Assembly: GCA_902802355.1 (NCBI GenBank)
Contig: CADCLU010000005.1
Location: 664 to 64,663 of the forward strand
Length of the DNA: 64,000 nt
Source of the DNA: an uncultured Erysipelotrichaceae bacterium
GTDB lineage: Bacteria > Bacillota_I > Bacilli_A > RFN20 > CAG-826
Direction: 5' to 3'
The translations under genes were made by a program, and so were the position numbers. Shown piece after piece: positions 57,536 through 64,000 of the stretch. Position 1 is the first letter of the stretch. Every line of letters begins with the position of its first letter. Below the pieces are notes generated by a model. That model did not search any database. It worked only from the letters and a program-made list of their open reading frames with translations, and was not told where the DNA came from.

Positions 57536-59260
57536 TTATTCAACGTCCTGAAGAGCGTCGTAACCTTCCTCGCCAGTTCTTACTTTGACGACATTCTCAA
57601 CGTCATAGACGAAGATCTTGCCATCGCCGAGGTTGCCGGTATAAAGGACTTTCTTCGCGGTTTCAATGACGTTTCTGACAGGGATTTTGCTGACGACGAT
57701 GTCGACTTGGACCTTTGGAAGGAGGTTGGTGTCGACTCTGACGCCACGGTAATACTCTTCATAGCCCTGCTGCTGGCCAAAGCCTAAGACATGGGCAACG
57801 GTCATGCCGGTGATGCCGAGTTTGCTCATTGCGTCTTTGAGAGCGTATAAGCGTTCCTCTTTGAAGATGATCTGAACCTTGGTGAACTTCGGAGAGGAGG
57901 AAGCTTTGCTTGGGACCTTCTTGACCGGTATGGCCTCTTCCACTGGGGTAATGCCAGTGACTGGGAGGGCTTCTTTCTCAAGGCTATATTCGGCGTAGGC
58001 GTTAGAGGCATACACGAAGTCTGCGTAAGCGGATGGAAGACCGTGTTCAGTCTTATCAAGACCCTTGATCTCCTCTTCTCTAGAGACACGGAGACCGACG
58101 GTCTTTTTGATGATGAAGAAGGTGATCGTCATGGTGACGACGGTGTAAGCGGCAACGGAGACGAAGCCAAGACACTGGACACCGAGCTGGTAGAAATCAC
58201 CGGTGTAGAATAAGCCTTTGAGTCCGGCTGGAGCGGCTGGGTTGGCTAATAAGCCAACAGCGATTGTGCCCCAGATACCGTTGGCCATATGGACGCCGAC
58301 AGCGCCGACAGGGTCATCGATATGAAGCTTGAGGTCGAGGAATTCGACGACGAAGACGACAAGGAAGCCAGAGACCAAACCAACGACGGTTGAGCCAATC
58401 GCATCGAGGGCGGCGCATCCTGCTGTGACACCGACTAAGCCGGCTAAGCAGGCGTTGATGCACATCGAGACATCGGGTTTCTTGTTCTTGATCCAGGTGA
58501 AGATCATGGTAGTGACGGTCGCTACGGCTGGAGCGATGGTCGTGTTGAGGAAGATGGTTGCGAGTTCGCTTGGGGTGGTCGCGGCGGCTCCGTTGAAGCC
58601 ATACCAGCCAAACCAGAGGATGAAGGCGCCTAAGGCACCTAAAGGAATTGAGTGGCCTTGGATGGCGTTTACTTTAGTAACTTTGCCATTTTCGTCGTAT
58701 TCGTATTTGCCAATGCGTGGTCCGAGGATGATGGCACCGATGAGAGCGGCGATGCCGCCGACCATATGGATCGCGGTGCTTCCTGCGTAATCGTGGAACC
58801 CAAGGCTAGAGAGCCAGCCTCCGCCCCAGATCCAGTGAGCCTCGATTGGGTAAACGATCAAAGAGATGACCGCGGAATAGATGCAGTAAGAGAGGAACTT
58901 GGTTCTTTCTGCCATGGAACCGGAGACGATGGTCGCGGCGGTTGCGCAGAAGACAAGGTTGAAGACGAAGGTCGATGCTGCGGTGAAACCTTCGGCTGGG
59001 CTTTCGATGAAAGCGGCGAATTTAGCGAAGAGATCGAGGTTTGGGATACCGATGAGTCCCGCTAAAGCATCTTCACCCATCATTAAGCCGAAGCCTAAGA
59101 GCATGAAGACAACGGTGCCGATGCAGAAGTCCATAAGGTTCTTCATGATGATGTTGCCAGCGTTCTTCGCACGGGTGAAACCAGTCTCAACCATGGCGAA
59201 TCCGGCCTGCATGAAGAAGACGAGGGCGGCACCAATCAAATACCAAAATTCAATTGTCAT
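57536..59260 (-). CDS. amtB: Ammonium transporter fused to a C-terminal PII domain
   Basis: MQAGFAMVETG, DYAGSTAIH, WFGWYGFN and IDDPVGAVGVH; PII motifs GITGMTV, YRG and TGNLGDGKIFV..RTGE. Confidence 0.93.
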   Translation of the reverse strand: MTIEFWYLIGAALVFFMQAGFAMVETGFTRAKNAGNIIMKNLMDFCIGTVVFMLLGFGLMMGEDALAGLIGIPNLDLFAKFAAFIESPAEGFTAASTFVFNLVFCATAATIVSGSMAERTKFLSYCIYSAVISLIVYPIEAHWIWGGGWLSSLGFHDYAGSTAIHMVGGIAALIGAIILGPRIGKYEYDENGKVTKVNAIQGHSIPLGALGAFILWFGWYGFNGAAATTPSELATIFLNTTIAPAVATVTTMIFTWIKNKKPDVSMCINACLAGLVGVTAGCAALDAIGSTVVGLVSGFLVVFVVEFLDLKLHIDDPVGAVGVHMANGIWGTIAVGLLANPAAPAGLKGLFYTGDFYQLGVQCLGFVSVAAYTVVTMTITFFIIKKTVGLRVSREEEIKGLDKTEHGLPSAYADFVYASNAYAEYSLEKEALPVTGITPVEEAIPVKKVPSKASSSPKFTKVQIIFKEERLYALKDAMSKLGITGMTVAHVLGFGQQQGYEEYYRGVRVDTNLLPKVQVDIVVSKIPVRNVIETAKKVLYTGNLGDGKIFVYDVENVVKVRTGEEGYDALQDVE

Positions 59261-59354
59261 GATTACTCCTCCAATGAACCCGGAAACAAGTTCATATGGC
59301 GAATTTTAATAGCCTGCAAAATATTACACAAATACGTATAATATTATGGTAACG

Positions 59355-59369
59355 ATACGATTTCCGTAT
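59355..59369. promoter_or_regulatory. LysR-type operator (T-N11-A inverted repeat)
   Basis: ATACG-atttc-CGTAT between divergent amtB and the LysR gene, overlapping the TATGAT -10 of the LysR gene. Confidence 0.6.
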
Positions 59370-59383
59370 GATAGGAGAAGTAT

Positions 59384-60265
59384 ATGGACATTCGCACATT
59401 ATCTTACTTTGTAACCATTGCCGAAGAACTCAACATCACCAAAGCCGCCGAGAAGCTTTGCATGTCGCAGCCACCGCTCAGCAATCAGATGAAAAGCCTT
59501 GAGGAAGAACTTGATACAACCCTCTTCATCCGTGGCAAAAGACACCTTCAATTAACCGAATCGGGAAAGCTTCTTTATAGACATGCCAAAGAAATTCTTT
59601 CTTTGGTCGACAAGACTTCCGAGGAGGTCAGAGCCATGGCAAAAGGCATGCACGGAAAGATCGCAATCGGCCTTGTTGAGGGTTCCGCCCCTATCATTGC
59701 CGCAGAGTGGATCGAGACCTTTTTGAAGGAACACAAAAACGTTCAGTTCACCGTCGTCGATGGCAATAGCGACGAGCTCATCCAGAAACTTAGAAGCGGC
59801 CTCATCGACCTTGCCATCATCACCTCCCCTTGCGACAACACCCTTCTTAGCAGTTTCAAAGTCGGGCAAGAGCAGATGACCGCCTTCATGAGCAAAGACA
59901 ACCCTCTTGCTTCCCTTCCTGGTTCCACCATCGATTTGGCTATGCTCAAAGACAAGGCCCTCATCGTCCCTAGCAGGGAATCGATGGTCTCGATGATCTA
60001 TCGCTGGTTCAAGGAAATCCATATCGAGCCGAAGATCGTCTGCAAGATGGACAACTACCTCGACGTCGCCGCTCTTGCGGGAAGGAACGTCGGAATCAGT
60101 CTCTTCCCTAAAACCTCGTACATTCTCAATCAGCAGATCATCGCCAAAGAGATCGTCAACCCGGAAAGATATGTCGAATACTTATTCGTTTGGCTCAAGA
60201 ACAAGCCTCTCTCCCTTTTGAATGAGGCTTTCATCAATCACGTCAAATCCTTCGTGAAAGCATAA
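59384..60265 (+). CDS. LysR family transcriptional regulator
   Basis: NITKAAEKLCMSQPPLS..LEEEL..LF.R..LTESG HTH plus substrate-binding domain. Confidence 0.95.
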   Translation: MDIRTLSYFVTIAEELNITKAAEKLCMSQPPLSNQMKSLEEELDTTLFIRGKRHLQLTESGKLLYRHAKEILSLVDKTSEEVRAMAKGMHGKIAIGLVEGSAPIIAAEWIETFLKEHKNVQFTVVDGNSDELIQKLRSGLIDLAIITSPCDNTLLSSFKVGQEQMTAFMSKDNPLASLPGSTIDLAMLKDKALIVPSRESMVSMIYRWFKEIHIEPKIVCKMDNYLDVAALAGRNVGISLFPKTSYILNQQIIAKEIVNPERYVEYLFVWLKNKPLSLLNEAFINHVKSFVKA

Positions 60266-60496
60266 AAAAAGAACCTATTTTCATAGGTTCGATTTTGCCA
60301 ATCAGCTCGATGGTTGGTGGTGGTCCGTCTTACCGATTTGCGGTTAGCATGACTTGTCTTTCGCAATTTAGGGCTCGAAGGAGGAGAAAGGAGATACCTC
60401 GATTGCCCAAGAAACAGGTGATGCCGAAGGAGACGATTGTCTGTTTAAGTCCCAAAGAGCCGAAAACCGCATGACTAGCTATTTGGGTTCTTAAGC
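60266..60496 (-). ncRNA. Candidate ~230-nt regulatory sRNA with anti-SD loops
   Basis: Own extended -10 (TGtTACCAT, 60503-60511), at least four hairpins, terminator gaacctat..ataggttc+U7, and no credible ORF. Confidence 0.6.
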
Positions 60497-60502
60497 ACTT
60501 GA

Positions 60503-60540
60503 ATGGTAACATCCCCTCTGCCACAGAAGCGCCACAAAGA
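60503..60540 (-). promoter_or_regulatory. Direct-repeat promoter 1 (TGTGGC-N5-TGTGGC-N11-TACCAT)
   Basis: Same motif and spacing as 63007..63044. Confidence 0.65.
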
Positions 60541-60569
60541 AAAAAGCAGCCAAGTCGGCTGCTCTTTTT
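60540..60569 (-). terminator. Terminator of the two-component operon
   Basis: agcagcc-aagtc-ggctgct flanked by A and T tracts. Confidence 0.8.
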
Positions 60570-60577
60570 GATTTTAA

Positions 60578-61336
60578 TCAAAGATCTTCAAATATCGGCC
60601 AGGAATACTGAATCATGTACTCGCCTCTGTACATGCGTATCGCGTTAGGGTTCCCCTTCTTATATTCGTAGGCATCGCAGTCGACCTTATCGACATCGAT
60701 TGAATAGCCGTTATGGCTTTTGACGAAAACGTCAGCGCAGCCCACGCTCTTGAGGGTCTTTTGGATGTCGGCGATGAGGTTCCTCAAATAGGACTTATGA
60801 TCTTCCTCCCAAAGGACGGCATTGAGCTCATTGATATTGATGGCAGAACCTTCCCTATCGACGAGGTAAGCGAAGAGCTCTTTTGACTTCGAATAGGAAA
60901 AACGAAGGGGTTTTGCTTGGAAAAATAGCTCAAAATTGCCAAAGCATTTGATTTGGAGTTTCTTCGTTGGCTCTAGTTCCACAGGGAAACGGAGGCCTTC
61001 CACTTCCTCTTTCACTTTGGCTGGGCTCACTGGTTTAGAGACATAGCCGGAAGCATGCATCTTCATGGCTTCCATGGCGTAGTTGTTATAGGCGGTCACG
61101 AAGATGATGTTGATCTTCGGATTGACCCCTTTGAGTTTTTTGGCGAGAGCGATACCGTTTAGCCCTGGCATCTCAATATCGAGGAAGGCGATGTCGATTT
61201 GCTCTTTCTCATTTTCCTCAAAGGCTTTGAGTGGGTTGGAATAGGAAAGCAGTTCGGCCTCAGGGAGGACTTTTTTGACCGTTTCCTCAAGTCTTAGAAG
61301 CTGGAGCTTCTCATCATCGACGAGCAAGATTTTCAT
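60578..61336 (-). CDS. Response regulator, REC + SARP-type (winged helix/BTAD-like) output
   Basis: LVDDE, FLDIEMP, FVTAY and SKP receiver motifs; output IKCFGNFELF..KSKELFAYLV..LWE..YRGEY. Confidence 0.9.
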   Translation of the reverse strand: MKILLVDDEKLQLLRLEETVKKVLPEAELLSYSNPLKAFEENEKEQIDIAFLDIEMPGLNGIALAKKLKGVNPKINIIFVTAYNNYAMEAMKMHASGYVSKPVSPAKVKEEVEGLRFPVELEPTKKLQIKCFGNFELFFQAKPLRFSYSKSKELFAYLVDREGSAININELNAVLWEEDHKSYLRNLIADIQKTLKSVGCADVFVKSHNGYSIDVDKVDCDAYEYKKGNPNAIRMYRGEYMIQYSWPIFEDL

Positions 61337-61344
61337 AATTGCAC

Positions 61345-62601
61345 CTACTTATAGAAAAACACCGTGACAGTCGTTCCTTTGTTGAGTTCGCTTTCGACTT
61401 TGACCTCTCCCCTACACATCGAGGAGATTCTATATTTGACGTTGTTGAGTCCGTAATGGTTGCTTCCTTTGACGTCATTAGGGTCGAAGCCGACTCCATC
61501 GTCGGATATCGTAACGACATAAGCATCGTTATTTTCATAGGTCTTAAAGGTGATGGTTCCCCCTTCGATCTTCTTGAGGATGCCGTGTTTGGCGGCATTT
61601 TCCACTAGAGGCTGCAAGGAAAGAGCTGGGAGCATGAAGTCCTTTGTTTGAATGTCGTAAACGACATTGAGACGGTCTTCAAACCTCATCTTCTCCAAAG
61701 AGAGATACGTTTTTATATGCTTAAGCTCATCGGCGAAAGGAACGAGGCCGTTCTTTGAGAGCGAGGAAAGGTTGGCTCTAAGGTAATCGGTGAAATCATC
61801 AAGGCCTTTCTCCGCTTTGTCAGGATCGATTTTGATGAGGGTTGATATGGAGGCGAGGGTGTTATAGATGAAGTGAGGCTGAATCTGGGAGATCATGATC
61901 TTCACTTCCGCTTCCTTGTTCCTCTTCGCTTGGTTGGCAAGTTCCATATTCTTCCTTACGTTGACGAAGAGGAAAAGGATCTCAATTGCGATGATGATCG
62001 AGAGATAGGCCACCGCATAACCTGGAAGAAGGTTCTGGATGATGATGGCCACAAGCGGCACCGCACAATATGCTGAGAAAGCGATTTTCTCGGCAATTTT
62101 GACCTTTTTGTTGAAAATGGCGAGGCAGAAAACCGTCGCGAAGGTGACGAATTGATAGCCTTGGGAGATAATCATCGTCTTCGCTCTCGTGTACACGCCA
62201 TTCTCCGCATAGAAGAACATGTGGTTGAAAATATTCGCAATATCAAGGGCAACGAAAACGATATAGAGACCCAAACTCACGGCCCAGAGAATATTCGAAG
62301 TCTTCTTTTTGATTGGGATGTAGGCCATTGCGTATCCCATGAGCAAGAGCAACTCAAAGTTGTTCATGATGTAGAAGACCGTATAGAAAGCGATGATGAG
62401 GTTGTCGCTCGTATAGTTCATCTTGATGAGGGTGAACACCAAGTACGTAGCGAAATGGAAGGCATTGAAAACGACGAAAGCGAGGAGACAAAGCTCATCT
62501 TTCCTTTTGTTTTTCTTGAGAAGAATGTTGATGGTATGAATCAGGAAAAGGGCTATGCCGATGATGCATACCGTTGCGTTGAATGCGCTTTTGCTGTCCA
62601 T
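61345..62601 (-). CDS. LytS/YesM-type membrane sensor histidine kinase
   Basis: About 7 TM helices; SQIQPHFIYNTL, YLSLEKMRF, LQPLVENAAKHG, DDGVGF and GTTV motifs; start at ATG 62601. Confidence 0.92.
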   Translation of the reverse strand: MDSKSAFNATVCIIGIALFLIHTINILLKKNKRKDELCLLAFVVFNAFHFATYLVFTLIKMNYTSDNLIIAFYTVFYIMNNFELLLLMGYAMAYIPIKKKTSNILWAVSLGLYIVFVALDIANIFNHMFFYAENGVYTRAKTMIISQGYQFVTFATVFCLAIFNKKVKIAEKIAFSAYCAVPLVAIIIQNLLPGYAVAYLSIIIAIEILFLFVNVRKNMELANQAKRNKEAEVKIMISQIQPHFIYNTLASISTLIKIDPDKAEKGLDDFTDYLRANLSSLSKNGLVPFADELKHIKTYLSLEKMRFEDRLNVVYDIQTKDFMLPALSLQPLVENAAKHGILKKIEGGTITFKTYENNDAYVVTISDDGVGFDPNDVKGSNHYGLNNVKYRISSMCRGEVKVESELNKGTTVTVFFYK

Positions 62602-62651
62602 TTCCAATATTGTACAAAATTTGTACAAGTTATCAAACAGCGGCCCCTAAA

Positions 62652-62682
62652 GAAAAAGGACCCTATGGTGCGAGGGGTCCTT
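62652..62682 (-). terminator. Terminator of the small-protein transcript
   Basis: ggaccc..gggtcc hairpin followed by a U-tract on the minus strand. Confidence 0.75.
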
Positions 62683-62763
62683 ACGACACAGGCCTCATTG
62701 CCGAGTGGCTAGAAAGGGTTTGACTAATTGCCACCGGCACTTGGCTTGCCTACATTTTGACGA

Positions 62764-62964
62764 TCAGCGTGGCTTGAGTCCGAAAACAAGTCCCAATACT
62801 ACGGCGAGTATTGTGAATAAGCCAATTCCCAAGATGATGAAAAAGCGCGTGGTTAGCCTCTTTTTCCTTGAGAGGGCATTTTCCTCCTCATGGAGCTTTC
62901 TGTCATAGTACTCGAAAGCCGCTTTATCCGATTCAGTATCTTCTTCGTACCAGAAGTCGTTCAT
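62764..62964 (-). CDS. Small protein with acidic N-terminus and single C-terminal TM helix
   Basis: GGAGG 7 nt before ATG 62964; 66 aa. Confidence 0.72.
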   Translation of the reverse strand: MNDFWYEEDTESDKAAFEYYDRKLHEEENALSRKKRLTTRFFIILGIGLFTILAVVLGLVFGLKPR

Positions 62965-63006
62965 CAATGTGCCTCCTAAATGAAATAAAACGTTCGAGTT
63001 GGCTAC

Positions 63007-63044
63007 ACTATAGGTGGTGACACGTCACAAAAGCGCCACAAAGA
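63007..63044 (-). promoter_or_regulatory. Direct-repeat promoter 2 (TGTGGC-N5-TGTGAC-N11-TATAGT)
   Basis: Same motif and spacing as 60503..60540. Confidence 0.65.
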
Positions 63045-63107
63045 GAAGTGATTCTCGACGAAAAAGTAACAAAAAAACGGCAGATATTCTGCCGTTAATT
63101 CTCATTC

Positions 63108-63185
63108 TGGGGCGGAATAGGAGATTTGAACTCCCGAATGACCGGTTCACAGCCGGTTGTGTTAGACCACTTCACCAATTCCGCC
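63108..63185 (-). tRNA. tRNA-His(GTG)
   Basis: 8-bp acceptor including G-1:C73 (GGCGGAAT/ATTCCGCC); accgg-ctGTGaa-ccggt; encoded CCA. Confidence 0.95.
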
Positions 63186-63315
63186 GTGCCGTATTAGTTT
63201 AGCCACATTGTCTATCCTTAGCAAGGAAGAAATCACTATCTTTTTCCTTTCTGTCAAAATGGCTTTTTCACTACCCCTCTTGAAAAGAGAGGGAAAAAGA
63301 GGAAAATATAGCCCC

Positions 63316-64000
63316 ATGGTAATTAGAGACAGACTTATCGCGCTTATATACCGTATCGTTGCCCTCATCATCGGGATAGCGACCTTGGCCATTCAGCTGA
63401 ACACCAACGTCCCAAACAATTTCTGGGCAGGCTTTGGCAACTACGCGACGATCGTCACTCTATTTTCAAGCATCATCATCCTTTCCGAGATCATCGCCAA
63501 TGCGATAGGAATGAGGGAAAAGAGAAACACCATCGCCCCTGGCGTCGTTCCTTTCCTTTTCCATGGTGCGTTAGCCCTTTCTGTCTCGCTTGCGGTGACC
63601 CACCCGTTCTATTGCTATTTCGTCGGCGTCAATTACATGAAGCCGGACACTTTCGTCTATTCGCTTCTCTCTTTCATCGTCTTCCCTGCCATCGTCCTTC
63701 TTGATTGGATCCTTTTCGGCGAAAAAGGAACCGTCAAATGGTCATACGGCATGTTCCCGTTATTCTTCCCGATTTTCTATTTCCTTTTCTCAGTGATGAG
63801 AAAGAATCTTGTCAGCGGTTCCACTTATTCCACCCTTGTCTTCGACCAAAATACCTTCCTTATGTCCAAGCATCTGCCTGATGCATTCTCGGCAGGAAAT
63901 GGCTGGGCTGGTGTCTTTATCTCCATCCTTTCCTTATTCGCTATCATCGTTCTTGTTGACTTCGCCCTTATCCTCATCAATAACCTCTTCGCGAAACGTT
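63316..64000 (+). CDS. Pr6Pr/FAR-17a-like membrane protein (truncated by window edge)
   Basis: Manual translation MVIRDRLIALIYRIV...; multi-TM; P...LLDWILFGEKG..KW and FPIFY; open to the window end. Confidence 0.65.
   Translation, partial: MVIRDRLIALIYRIVALIIGIATLAIQLNTNVPNNFWAGFGNYATIVTLFSSIIILSEIIANAIGMREKRNTIAPGVVPFLFHGALALSVSLAVTHPFYCYFVGVNYMKPDTFVYSLLSFIVFPAIVLLDWILFGEKGTVKWSYGMFPLFFPIFYFLFSVMRKNLVSGSTYSTLVFDQNTFLMSKHLPDAFSAGNGWAGVFISILSLFAIIVLVDFALILINNLFAKR

Follow-up and report, generated by a model that had tools for sequence, protein, structure and literature searches.

Regulators of the PhoB/OmpR family that act in class II fashion at promoters without a -35 element use tandem direct repeats, which lie one helical turn apart and about 10-11 nucleotides (nt) from the -10 element, and the phosphorylated dimer binds these repeats head to tail. 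Among the RNAs controlled by two-component systems, the csRNAs of the CiaRH system are small RNAs (sRNAs) of roughly 90-150 nt. The OmpR-type regulator of CiaRH binds a direct repeat, NTTAAG-N5-TTTAAG, located 10 nt before the -10 of the csRNA genes, and the products of its strongest promoters are short sRNAs, each with its own terminator, in which unpaired regions contain sequences complementary to the Shine-Dalgarno (SD) sequence (PMC3091779). In FasBCAX of Streptococcus pyogenes, an independently transcribed sRNA gene beside the operon is the main output (PMC12675982), and PhoQP of enterobacteria induces the membrane protein MgrB together with the sRNAs MgrR and PinT (PMC11825808; see also PMC10746255). 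Here we describe a locus of related design in the window, a stretch of 64,000 nt (G000:C5:664-64663) belonging to the genome under study, G000, which has 1,093,726 bases and is 96.6% complete. The sequencing runs containing this stretch are labelled as bovine or sheep gut metagenome. The locus encodes a sensor histidine kinase and a response regulator between two short units, one predicted to produce an sRNA and the other a microprotein of 66 amino acids (aa). The best explanation overall, to which we give a probability of about 70%, is a two-component module that drives the sRNA and the microprotein through box promoters lacking a -35 element. Positions are those of the window, L-numbers denote orthologous loci and G-numbers other than G000 denote related genomes.

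The 21-mer TCTTTGTGGCGCTTYTGTGRC is present twice in the window, both times on the minus strand and with 0 mismatches (Table 1). No further match was found when up to three mismatches were allowed, and the expected count in 100 dinucleotide-preserving shuffles was 0.00. Both boxes contain TGTGGC/TGTGRC hexamers repeated with an 11-nt period, and the second hexamer ends 11 nt before the -10 hexamers TACCAT (sRNA promoter) and TATAGT (microprotein promoter). No TTGACA-like hexamer is present 16-18 nt upstream of either -10, and the consensus promoter scan lists neither site. The exact duplication of the box and this promoter geometry had both been claimed in a preliminary description of the locus, and both were recovered. 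At the extended -10 of the sRNA promoter, TGTTACCAT, TGCTAACAT or TGTTAGCAT is kept in L046-L053. Transcription starts near 60496 and 63000 would fit the distance between box and -10. Each promoter heads a short unit closed by a hairpin and T-run terminator, predicted to run from ~63000 to ~62653 for the microprotein and from 60496 to ~60264 for the sRNA, with the kinase-regulator operon, as assigned by Pfam, in between. This is in agreement with the arrangement proposed earlier, in which separately terminated transcripts flank the operon.

The box was searched in a set of 93 loci (457,201 bases, both strands), which comprised the window, 12 loci taken from genomes of the family, and the best 80 out of 153 metagenome stretches encoding a relative. 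The pattern TGTGRC-N5-TGTGRC with at most one mismatch gave 57 matches, compared with one for the reversed control pattern. A TANNNT hexamer follows at a spacing of 11 nt in 51 of the 57 boxes, at 13 nt in nine and at 14 nt in three, and in none at 7-10 or 12 nt. Forty-seven of the site sequences are distinct, and the consensus reads T-rich, TGTGGCAC, TTT, TGTGRCA, N10, TATAAT. Out of the 81 loci with at least 150 nt past the regulator gene, 35 have a box within 350 nt downstream of it on the same strand. The box of the microprotein promoter is also found upstream of the kinase gene in L046, L049, L050, L051, G378, G387, G402, G405 and G414.

Whole genomes were compared with G000 by a composite pattern consisting of the box, 11 nt and TANNNT, with at most one mismatch. 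The groups were set by the regulator and the boxes counted afterwards; no statistic is given, because related genomes are not independent. The composite pattern occurs twice in G000 and three times each in G378 and G387. Five regulator-bearing genomes without a box adjacent to the regulator gene contain 11, 5, 12, 14 and 10 composite matches and no control matches, whereas all five congeners without the regulator (95-99% complete) contain none. In a sample of 61 genomes of the genus, 22 composite matches were found against 8 for the control, and pairs of sites ~2.5 kb apart are present in only six genomes (G000, G378, G387, G402, G405 and G414). All six encode, between the two sites, a regulator that is 83-100% identical. 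A search for the motif genome-wide and beside orthologous kinase-regulator pairs, which the preliminary description had suggested, thus found it where the regulator is encoded. These comparisons support the view that the repeat and its -10 form a conserved promoter type tied to this regulator family.

Orthologous kinase-regulator operons, with regulators 64-87% identical, were found in 61 of 401 family genomes including G000, and in 2 of the 53 other genus genomes in that sample, and the module is therefore accessory. This patchy occurrence, together with two direct repeats that bracket the operon, would also suit 21-nt repeats that are the ends of a mobile cassette, that is, attachment sites or duplication scars, or binding sites for some other factor. 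We consider this extremely improbable, since the upstream repeat is outside the microprotein gene and not at the edge of the operon, the box is dispersed 5-14 times in other regulator-bearing genomes, 51 of 57 boxes have TANNNT at 11 nt, and the boxes that were inspected are upstream of genes. A distance of 11 or 22 nt to the -10 does not fit a sigma-factor -35 element either.

The kinase is of the LytS/YesM type, with Pfam matches to His_kinase PF06580 (E 1.5e-23) and HATPase_c PF02518 (E 2e-11). H243 in the H-box QIQPHF is invariant in nine of nine aligned sequences, and the N-terminal sensor half appears, as judged by eye from the sequence, to be almost wholly membrane-embedded, with several passes. 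In the regulator, the REC domain is recognised by Response_reg (E 1.1e-21; score 77.5 bits, cut-off 30.2), and all 13 orthologues aligned share D8, D53, T81 and K101. The output domain is below the threshold of Pfam Trans_reg_C (E 0.16, 12.5 bits against 26.2). A profile of the 13 orthologues gave weak matches in the PDB to DrrD (E 0.35), SaeR (E 0.51), DrrB (E 1.3) and the N-terminus of EmbR (E 1.8). With the AlphaFold2 model of the regulator (pLDDT 78, pTM 0.48, last 22 residues with pLDDT below 50), the best Foldseek matches are full-length OmpR/PhoB regulators, namely DrrB (E 9.4e-12), VanR, DrrD, PhoP, PrrA and RpaA. These cover 220-239 columns with a probability of 1.00 and a TM of 0.39-0.47, values of the kind expected if the two domains differ in orientation.

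The pair had been called SARP-type in the preliminary description, and this assignment holds in part. The winged helix has SARP-like features in the orthologue alignment when compared with SARPs, and two relatives are named 'two-component SAPR family response regulator' (JGI), a label to which COG3947 is presumably tied; another is named 'response regulator [Bacilli bacterium]' (NCBI). However, no bacterial transcriptional activation domain (BTAD), which follows the winged helix in a SARP (Streptomyces antibiotic regulatory protein), was found in residues 123-252 with Pfam at E up to 10, and the regulator ends ~25 residues past the winged helix. Despite its REC domain and OmpR/SARP-like winged helix, the regulator is therefore not a SARP proper, and the kinase is an ordinary LytS/YesM-type protein. 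A search with residues 120-252 retrieved 1,445 proteins at E <= 1e-3, and among the best 120 of these the near-full-length relatives have REC as their sole Pfam domain.

The upstream unit encodes a microprotein with an acidic, aromatic N-terminus and one predicted C-terminal transmembrane helix. In public data, seven clusters of microproteins 89-98% identical were found. Behind the same box, L049, L050 and L051 encode proteins of 61-64 aa that are 44-52% identical and keep the motif M-[DN]-x-F-[WR]-x-E-E...E-W-D-K-x-[AV]-F and the helix ...VLGLV[FI]GL. An equivalent GC hairpin with a T-run follows the microprotein gene in L046, L049, L050 and L051. The microprotein matched no Pfam or NCBIfam family and no structure that would explain it, and the best score in the protein atlas, 0.80, is at chance level. 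Its conservation supports a real small membrane protein, predicted to be tail-anchored. No homology places it in the MgrB/SafA class of small kinase modulators, and the preliminary proposal that it might feed back on the kinase was not supported.

The downstream unit (60264-60496) had no match in Rfam 15 at E up to 1 with permissive filters. Homologues of the sRNA were detected with BLAST and a nucleotide profile in L046, L048, L050, L051 and L053, and L047 ends 9 nt into the RNA. The sRNA is single-copy, as nhmmer finds one place in G000, and it was found by nhmmer in 6 of the 93 loci. It follows the regulator gene in G378, G387, G402, G405 and G414, which are all five of the genus genomes with a regulator at least 83% identical, and it is absent from G404, the regulator of which is 70% identical. 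In all, the sRNA is kept in 11 loci or genomes, with regulators at least 83% identical. A BLAST search of 100 family genomes, a sample that held no close relatives, gave nothing beyond G000. The gene after the sRNA is a convergent LysR-type gene in the window, dehydrogenase-like in L046 and L048, and AbrB-like in L051 and L053; since this neighbour differs between loci, the sRNA travels with the regulator.

All homologues of the sRNA begin with (G/A)CUUAAG, seven nt past the -10. The predicted structure of the window sRNA has three hairpins, of which the 5' one is closed by GCUUAAG/CUUAAAC and the other two present a C/U-rich loop and a CCACCACCAACC loop, respectively, and it also includes an intrinsic terminator. 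The minimum-energy folds of the six homologues have in common the 5' hairpin formed by the CUUAAG palindrome, a hairpin with UCUCCUUUC in its loop, and the terminator. The C/U-rich loop is unpaired in all six folds, and UCCUUUC is invariant in the six aligned sequences. The stem beneath this loop is CGAGG/CUUCG in the window, GAGCGG/CCGCUC in L053 and GAUGGAG/CUCCAUC in L051, so that wholly different sequences form it. Pairs were counted only within two groups of close homologues, because the MAFFT alignments of all six RNAs are not true to the structure. In the L053 group, 2 of 63 predicted pairs have changed on both sides (A-U to G-C via G-U, and C-G to U-A), and a single pair is disrupted, in one of the sequences; in the window group, 3 of 58 have changed on both sides.

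The loop UAUCUCCUUUCUCCUCC holds CUCCUUUCU, which are 9 nt of the 3' tail of the genome's own 16S rRNA (..CACCUCCUUUCU; 16S 3' end at G000:C7:24625). A second conserved C-rich tract, CCACCACCAACC, sits in another loop of the sRNA, and further conserved single-stranded tracts are CAAUYG, CCUGUUUC and CCACCACCA. Similar to the sRNAs with sequences complementary to the SD (anti-SD) that two-component systems control, the unit combines a box at a fixed distance from the -10, its own terminator, and a loop, unpaired in the predicted folds, that is complementary to the SD; all sequence and fold features of that class are present. The evidence supports a conserved, structured RNA, predicted to be non-coding, with an exposed anti-SD-like loop. 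With both units conserved, the earlier claim that the output comprises an anti-SD-looped sRNA and a small membrane protein stands, as far as the sequences can tell.

A coding function of the downstream unit appears unlikely. A sense open reading frame (ORF) of 34 aa (60472-60368) is open in the window, L046 and L048, and an antisense ORF of 59 aa (60295-60474), with an apparently strong SD, is open in the window and L046. However, no SD precedes the sense ORF, its start codon in L046 is TTG, L048 reads the conserved sRNA nucleotides in another frame between two indels, and L050, L051 and L053 contain no equivalent of it. The antisense ORF is interrupted in L048, and the other homologues do not have it. 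The idea that the unit encodes a small protein in either of these ORFs is thus highly improbable.

The unit could also be an orphaned leader, or the decayed remnant of a coding target gene, that is still transcribed from a regulated promoter. In distant orthologous loci, the same promoter position drives coding genes for secreted proteins, lipoproteins and leader peptides, some of which have long leaders (262 nt in L039, for example), and the fold energy of the sRNA, given below, is not exceptional. Nevertheless, 11 loci or genomes preserve the unit together with a terminator of its own, compensatory changes in stems and an invariant motif in the loop. It remains beside the regulator gene although the gene downstream varies, no reading frame in it is conserved, and its divergence in one strain comparison does not exceed that of coding sequence. 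In that comparison, which used RNA-library contigs of a related strain, 3 of 182 positions differ in the sRNA, against 6/364, 9/213, 7/230, 8/177 and 7/195 in the neighbouring coding contigs. A remnant is thus very unlikely.

How the RNA would act is less certain. Ribosome-binding sites in G000 are often of the AGAAAGGAGA type, which makes pairing of the loop with such sites plausible but generic. Target prediction with RNAduplex against 1,985 crude start regions produced unrealistic full-length duplexes, and no target is claimed. It is conceivable that the boxes are real but that the RNA acts in cis or by binding protein, for example as a sponge or decoy, and not by anti-SD pairing. No specific mRNA target is predicted, the RNA is long (~230 nt) and it has several conserved single-stranded tracts, as such a role would allow; the invariant exposed motif, however, is the anti-SD sequence itself, and in the window a role as leader is excluded, because no gene on the same strand is located downstream. 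We regard this possibility as unlikely.

Both units are represented in public RNA libraries, for which only assembled contigs were available, so that starts, strand and expression level cannot be read from them. In X1, a contig of 182 nt is located wholly within the predicted sRNA (60298-60479), and another is on the microprotein unit (62724-62900). In X10, the only two contigs on a 4.7-kb stretch are 60373-60568 and 62756-62977. X6 contains the contigs 62776-62854 and 62825-62970, and the X7 rows are identical to these and may be the same data. Counted by study, contigs of the microprotein unit come from three and those of the sRNA unit from two.

Several results weigh against this reading of the locus as a module with an RNA and a microprotein as outputs. 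The X10 contig 60373-60568 spans the predicted start, the box and the regulator terminator, and therefore reflects read-through or DNA in that run and not a clean start at 60496; carry-over of DNA is possible in all these libraries. The -10 of the sRNA promoter, TACCAT, is weak. The fold energy of the sRNA is unexceptional (z -1.42; 18 of 200 shuffles fold at least as well), and 10 of the 58 predicted pairs in the window group are broken or gapped in one of the three close homologues, partly due to a shift of one column in L048. About 100 sites in the genome share at least 10 nt with the complement of the loop, as expected of a loop that is simply anti-SD, and no target stands out among them. 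No box was found in the 350 nt past the regulator gene in 46 of the 81 orthologous loci. Because the kinase and the regulator are invariably co-inherited, their association with the box across genomes cannot tell which protein reads it.

The claim that the module is self-contained was not borne out, since a third candidate promoter is present elsewhere in the genome and related genomes hold 5-14 of them. The exact core TGTGRC-N5-TGTGRC occurs three times in G000, in the two window boxes and at G000:C1:104712-104728, which is intergenic, 10 nt before TACAAT and 39 nt before the gene of a 756-aa lipoprotein. This third site also counts against the proposed rule, as its spacer is 10 nt and not 11, and it is a candidate only, because chance alone should give an estimated ~0.5 exact matches to the core in a genome as large as this. 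No Pfam family was found in the first 487 aa of the lipoprotein. Within this region (G000:C1:104712-107037), the ribosome-binding site of the lipoprotein gene, AAAGGAGATA, is complementary to the sRNA loop over 10 nt.

The features of the locus are listed in Table 1.

Table 1. Coordinates of the kinase-regulator locus, its flanking units and its neighbours within the window
Feature	Position	Strand	Details
tRNA-His (GTG)	63108-63184	-	Directly upstream of the microprotein promoter; terminator 63096-63076
Regulator box, microprotein promoter, TCTTTGTGGCGCTTTTGTGAC	63024-63044	-	TCTT-TGTGGC-GCTTT-TGTGAC, core 63040-63024; exact match
-10 hexamer TATAGT	63007-63012	-	11 nt past the box; predicted start near 63000
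Microprotein gene, 66 aa + stop	62764-62964	-	ORF list; SD AGGAGG at 62977-62972
Terminator after microprotein gene	62653-62680	-	GGACCC..GGGTCC hairpin and T-run, read from the sequence
Kinase operon promoter, sigma-70 type, TTGATA-16 nt-TACAAT	62609-62636	-	Consensus scan, 10/12 matches; predicted only
Sensor histidine kinase, 418 aa from MDSKS	61345-62601	-	Pfam
Response regulator, 252 aa	60578-61336	-	Pfam Response_reg
Terminator hairpin after regulator gene	60545-60563	-	TTTTTT follows on the minus strand; the terminator scan listed the hairpin for the + strand
Regulator box, sRNA promoter, TCTTTGTGGCGCTTCTGTGGC	60520-60540	-	TCTT-TGTGGC-GCTTC-TGTGGC, core 60536-60520; exact match
Extended -10 TGT-TACCAT	60503-60511	-	11 nt past the box; hexamer 60508-60503
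Candidate sRNA, ~230 nt	60264-60496	-	Terminator stem 60290-60271, then T-run
C/U-rich sRNA loop UAUCUCCUUUCUCCUCC	60380-60396	-	Contains CUCCUUUCU
LysR-type gene	ends 60265	+	Converges on the sRNA; ORF list

The start of the kinase was chosen by agreement with its orthologues. This likely start codon, 62601, is only ~8 nt past the -10 of the operon promoter (both within 62599-62636), and the operon mRNA may therefore be leaderless or nearly so. The terminator after the microprotein gene was missed by the terminator scan because its loop is longer than 8 nt. The tRNA-His is the only Rfam match at gathering level in 58000-64000; in L046 another neighbour takes its place upstream, and it is therefore not part of the module. 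Within the microprotein promoter, the 11-nt spacer often holds a third half-site, TGTGAY (L049, L050, L051, G378, G387, G402 and G414), as in TGTGAC-ACTC-TGTGAT-T-TATAGT. The spacer in the window (63023-63013) reads GTGTCAC and forms an inverted repeat with the second half-site. Further along the window, 57536-59260 on the minus strand encodes a 574-aa ammonium transporter (PF00909, E 1e-122) fused to a C-terminal P-II domain (PF00543, E 2e-23).

Where the regulator is 66-75% identical, the targets of the box are mostly secreted proteins or lipoproteins of 300-1,300 aa, paralogous proteins of ~340-570 aa, and peptides of 60-95 aa. In these peptides, a leader that ends in GG precedes a Cys-rich, zinc-ribbon-like part, and they score below threshold against models of Nif11-like leaders (TIGR03798, E 4e-4, 20.6 against 32.3 bits; Pfam Nif11, E 0.003). 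There are hints, from sequence, that the family controls exported or modified peptides, perhaps within a peptide-signal circuit.

Individual loci show further arrangements. In L037, L054, L055, L062, L066, L068, L144 and L147, the box is ahead of genes for peptides of 43-95 aa with a helical leader up to GG and a CxxC...CxxC part, and in some loci the box-driven peptide genes adjoin a radical-SAM-like gene. L145 (G075:C24:13500-30000) has five box promoters in 15 kb, each before a gene for a protein of 468-570 aa; three of the five proteins are paralogous (MP..K..Q..II.RH..LVDKMNE...). After the regulator gene, L039, L043 and L044 share a common element, GACAAATGTAAAG / TTACAAATGTATAG, upstream of homologous lipoprotein genes; L043 and L044 have no regulator box at this element, to which a different factor may bind. 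Two congeners (G387:C3:3739 and G402:C18:277) share a conserved third box (TGTGGCACTTTTGTGAA..TAACAT/TACCAT) ~5.9 kb upstream of the module, and in G387 this box precedes the gene of a secreted protein with a signal peptide.

Taken as a working mechanism, the membrane-embedded LytS/YesM-type kinase would phosphorylate the REC-winged-helix regulator. The regulator would then bind the direct repeat TGTKGC-N5-TGTGRC, one helical turn apart and covering about -40 to -24, as a head-to-tail dimer. When bound, it would activate promoters that have no -35 element and a -10 exactly 11 nt downstream, in the manner of PhoB, CiaR and the class II activators of the OmpR family. We infer that the phosphorylated dimer recruits RNA polymerase, because the half-sites replace the -35 as they do with PhoB-type activators and CiaR. 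The minimal regulon in G000 would consist of one promoter on each side of the operon, leading to the ~230-nt terminated RNA and the 66-aa membrane protein, with a possible third promoter before the 756-aa lipoprotein gene on another contig. Since the promoter of the operon itself is of the consensus type, the kinase and regulator are probably produced constitutively, with induction confined to the outputs. The sRNA most likely acts in trans, its C/U-rich loops pairing with ribosome-binding sites and thereby repressing translation.

A bolder version of this mechanism is quite unlikely in our estimate. In it, the locus would be a portable cassette of three parts with an RNA copy of the anti-SD tail as its main output. 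When the kinase fires, the sRNA would compete with the 16S rRNA for strong ribosome-binding sites throughout the genome rather than on a few mRNAs, throttling translation initiation broadly, and the microprotein, induced together with it, would feed back on the kinase. The input may be a peptide signal, since the regulators of relatives run secreted proteins and peptides with double-glycine leaders.

If the mechanism is as proposed, the analysis supplies a recognition motif in DNA, along with a promoter architecture and a regulon, for a large regulator family, with at least 1,445 relatives, that is uncharacterised in the literature searched. No description of the regulator family, the box or the RNA was found there, and subscription journals and supplementary tables, such as censuses of sRNAs or regulators, might list them. 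The family occurs in Bacilli with small genomes, and this organism and its close relatives have been seen in rumen samples. With the locus come two new families, one of sRNAs and one of microproteins. With only two or three box promoters in G000, the whole circuit could be rebuilt in a heterologous host, and it would offer a compact model for a two-component system with RNA and microprotein outputs as well as a set of orthogonal regulated promoters. Moreover, regulons can be predicted with the motif in hundreds of uncultured genomes, and the targets that it indicates there are surface proteins and leader peptides.

Compared with the described systems, the locus is most similar to CiaRH and its csRNAs in its promoter and its RNA, with a hexamer-N5-hexamer box near the -10 and a terminated sRNA that has an unpaired anti-SD. 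The differences are the sequence of the box, the spacer (11 nt here and 10 nt in CiaRH), the kinase family (PF06580 here), the regulator subfamily, and the RNAs: one of ~230 nt with its anti-SD in a hairpin loop here, and several csRNAs with the anti-SD between two stem-loops there. No Rfam family matched the RNA of the window. Similar to FasBCAX, an operon encodes the regulator along with membrane-embedded kinase, with six transmembrane segments in the Fas kinases, and an sRNA gene adjoins it. In contrast, FasA is ComE-like and its site is upstream of a normal -35, whereas the regulator here has a winged helix and its site takes the place of the -35; Fas also has two kinase-like proteins and no microprotein. 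With PhoQP the locus shares an OmpR-family regulator predicted to turn on a small membrane protein and an sRNA. MgrB was shown to inhibit PhoQ, whereas the microprotein here is known from its sequence; the enterobacterial genes are scattered and those of the window flank the operon, and the proteins and RNAs are unrelated in sequence.

The promoter arrangement follows the PhoB/OmpR class II type, with a winged helix that has diverged too far for Pfam Trans_reg_C and a pattern that resembles the DNA-binding part of SARPs. The winged-helix features, the weak match to the EmbR N-terminus (E 1.8) and the JGI label SAPR on relatives also recall SARPs, but the regulator has a REC domain, which classical SARPs lack, and no BTAD. 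The preliminary description had presented the locus as a candidate new regulatory system. As a claim to a new kind of system this does not hold, because the same design is already known from PhoQP-MgrB/MgrR, CiaRH-csRNA and FasBCAX. The novelty relative to these systems lies in the regulator family and its box, in the families to which the RNA and the microprotein belong, and in a compact layout where both outputs flank the operon.

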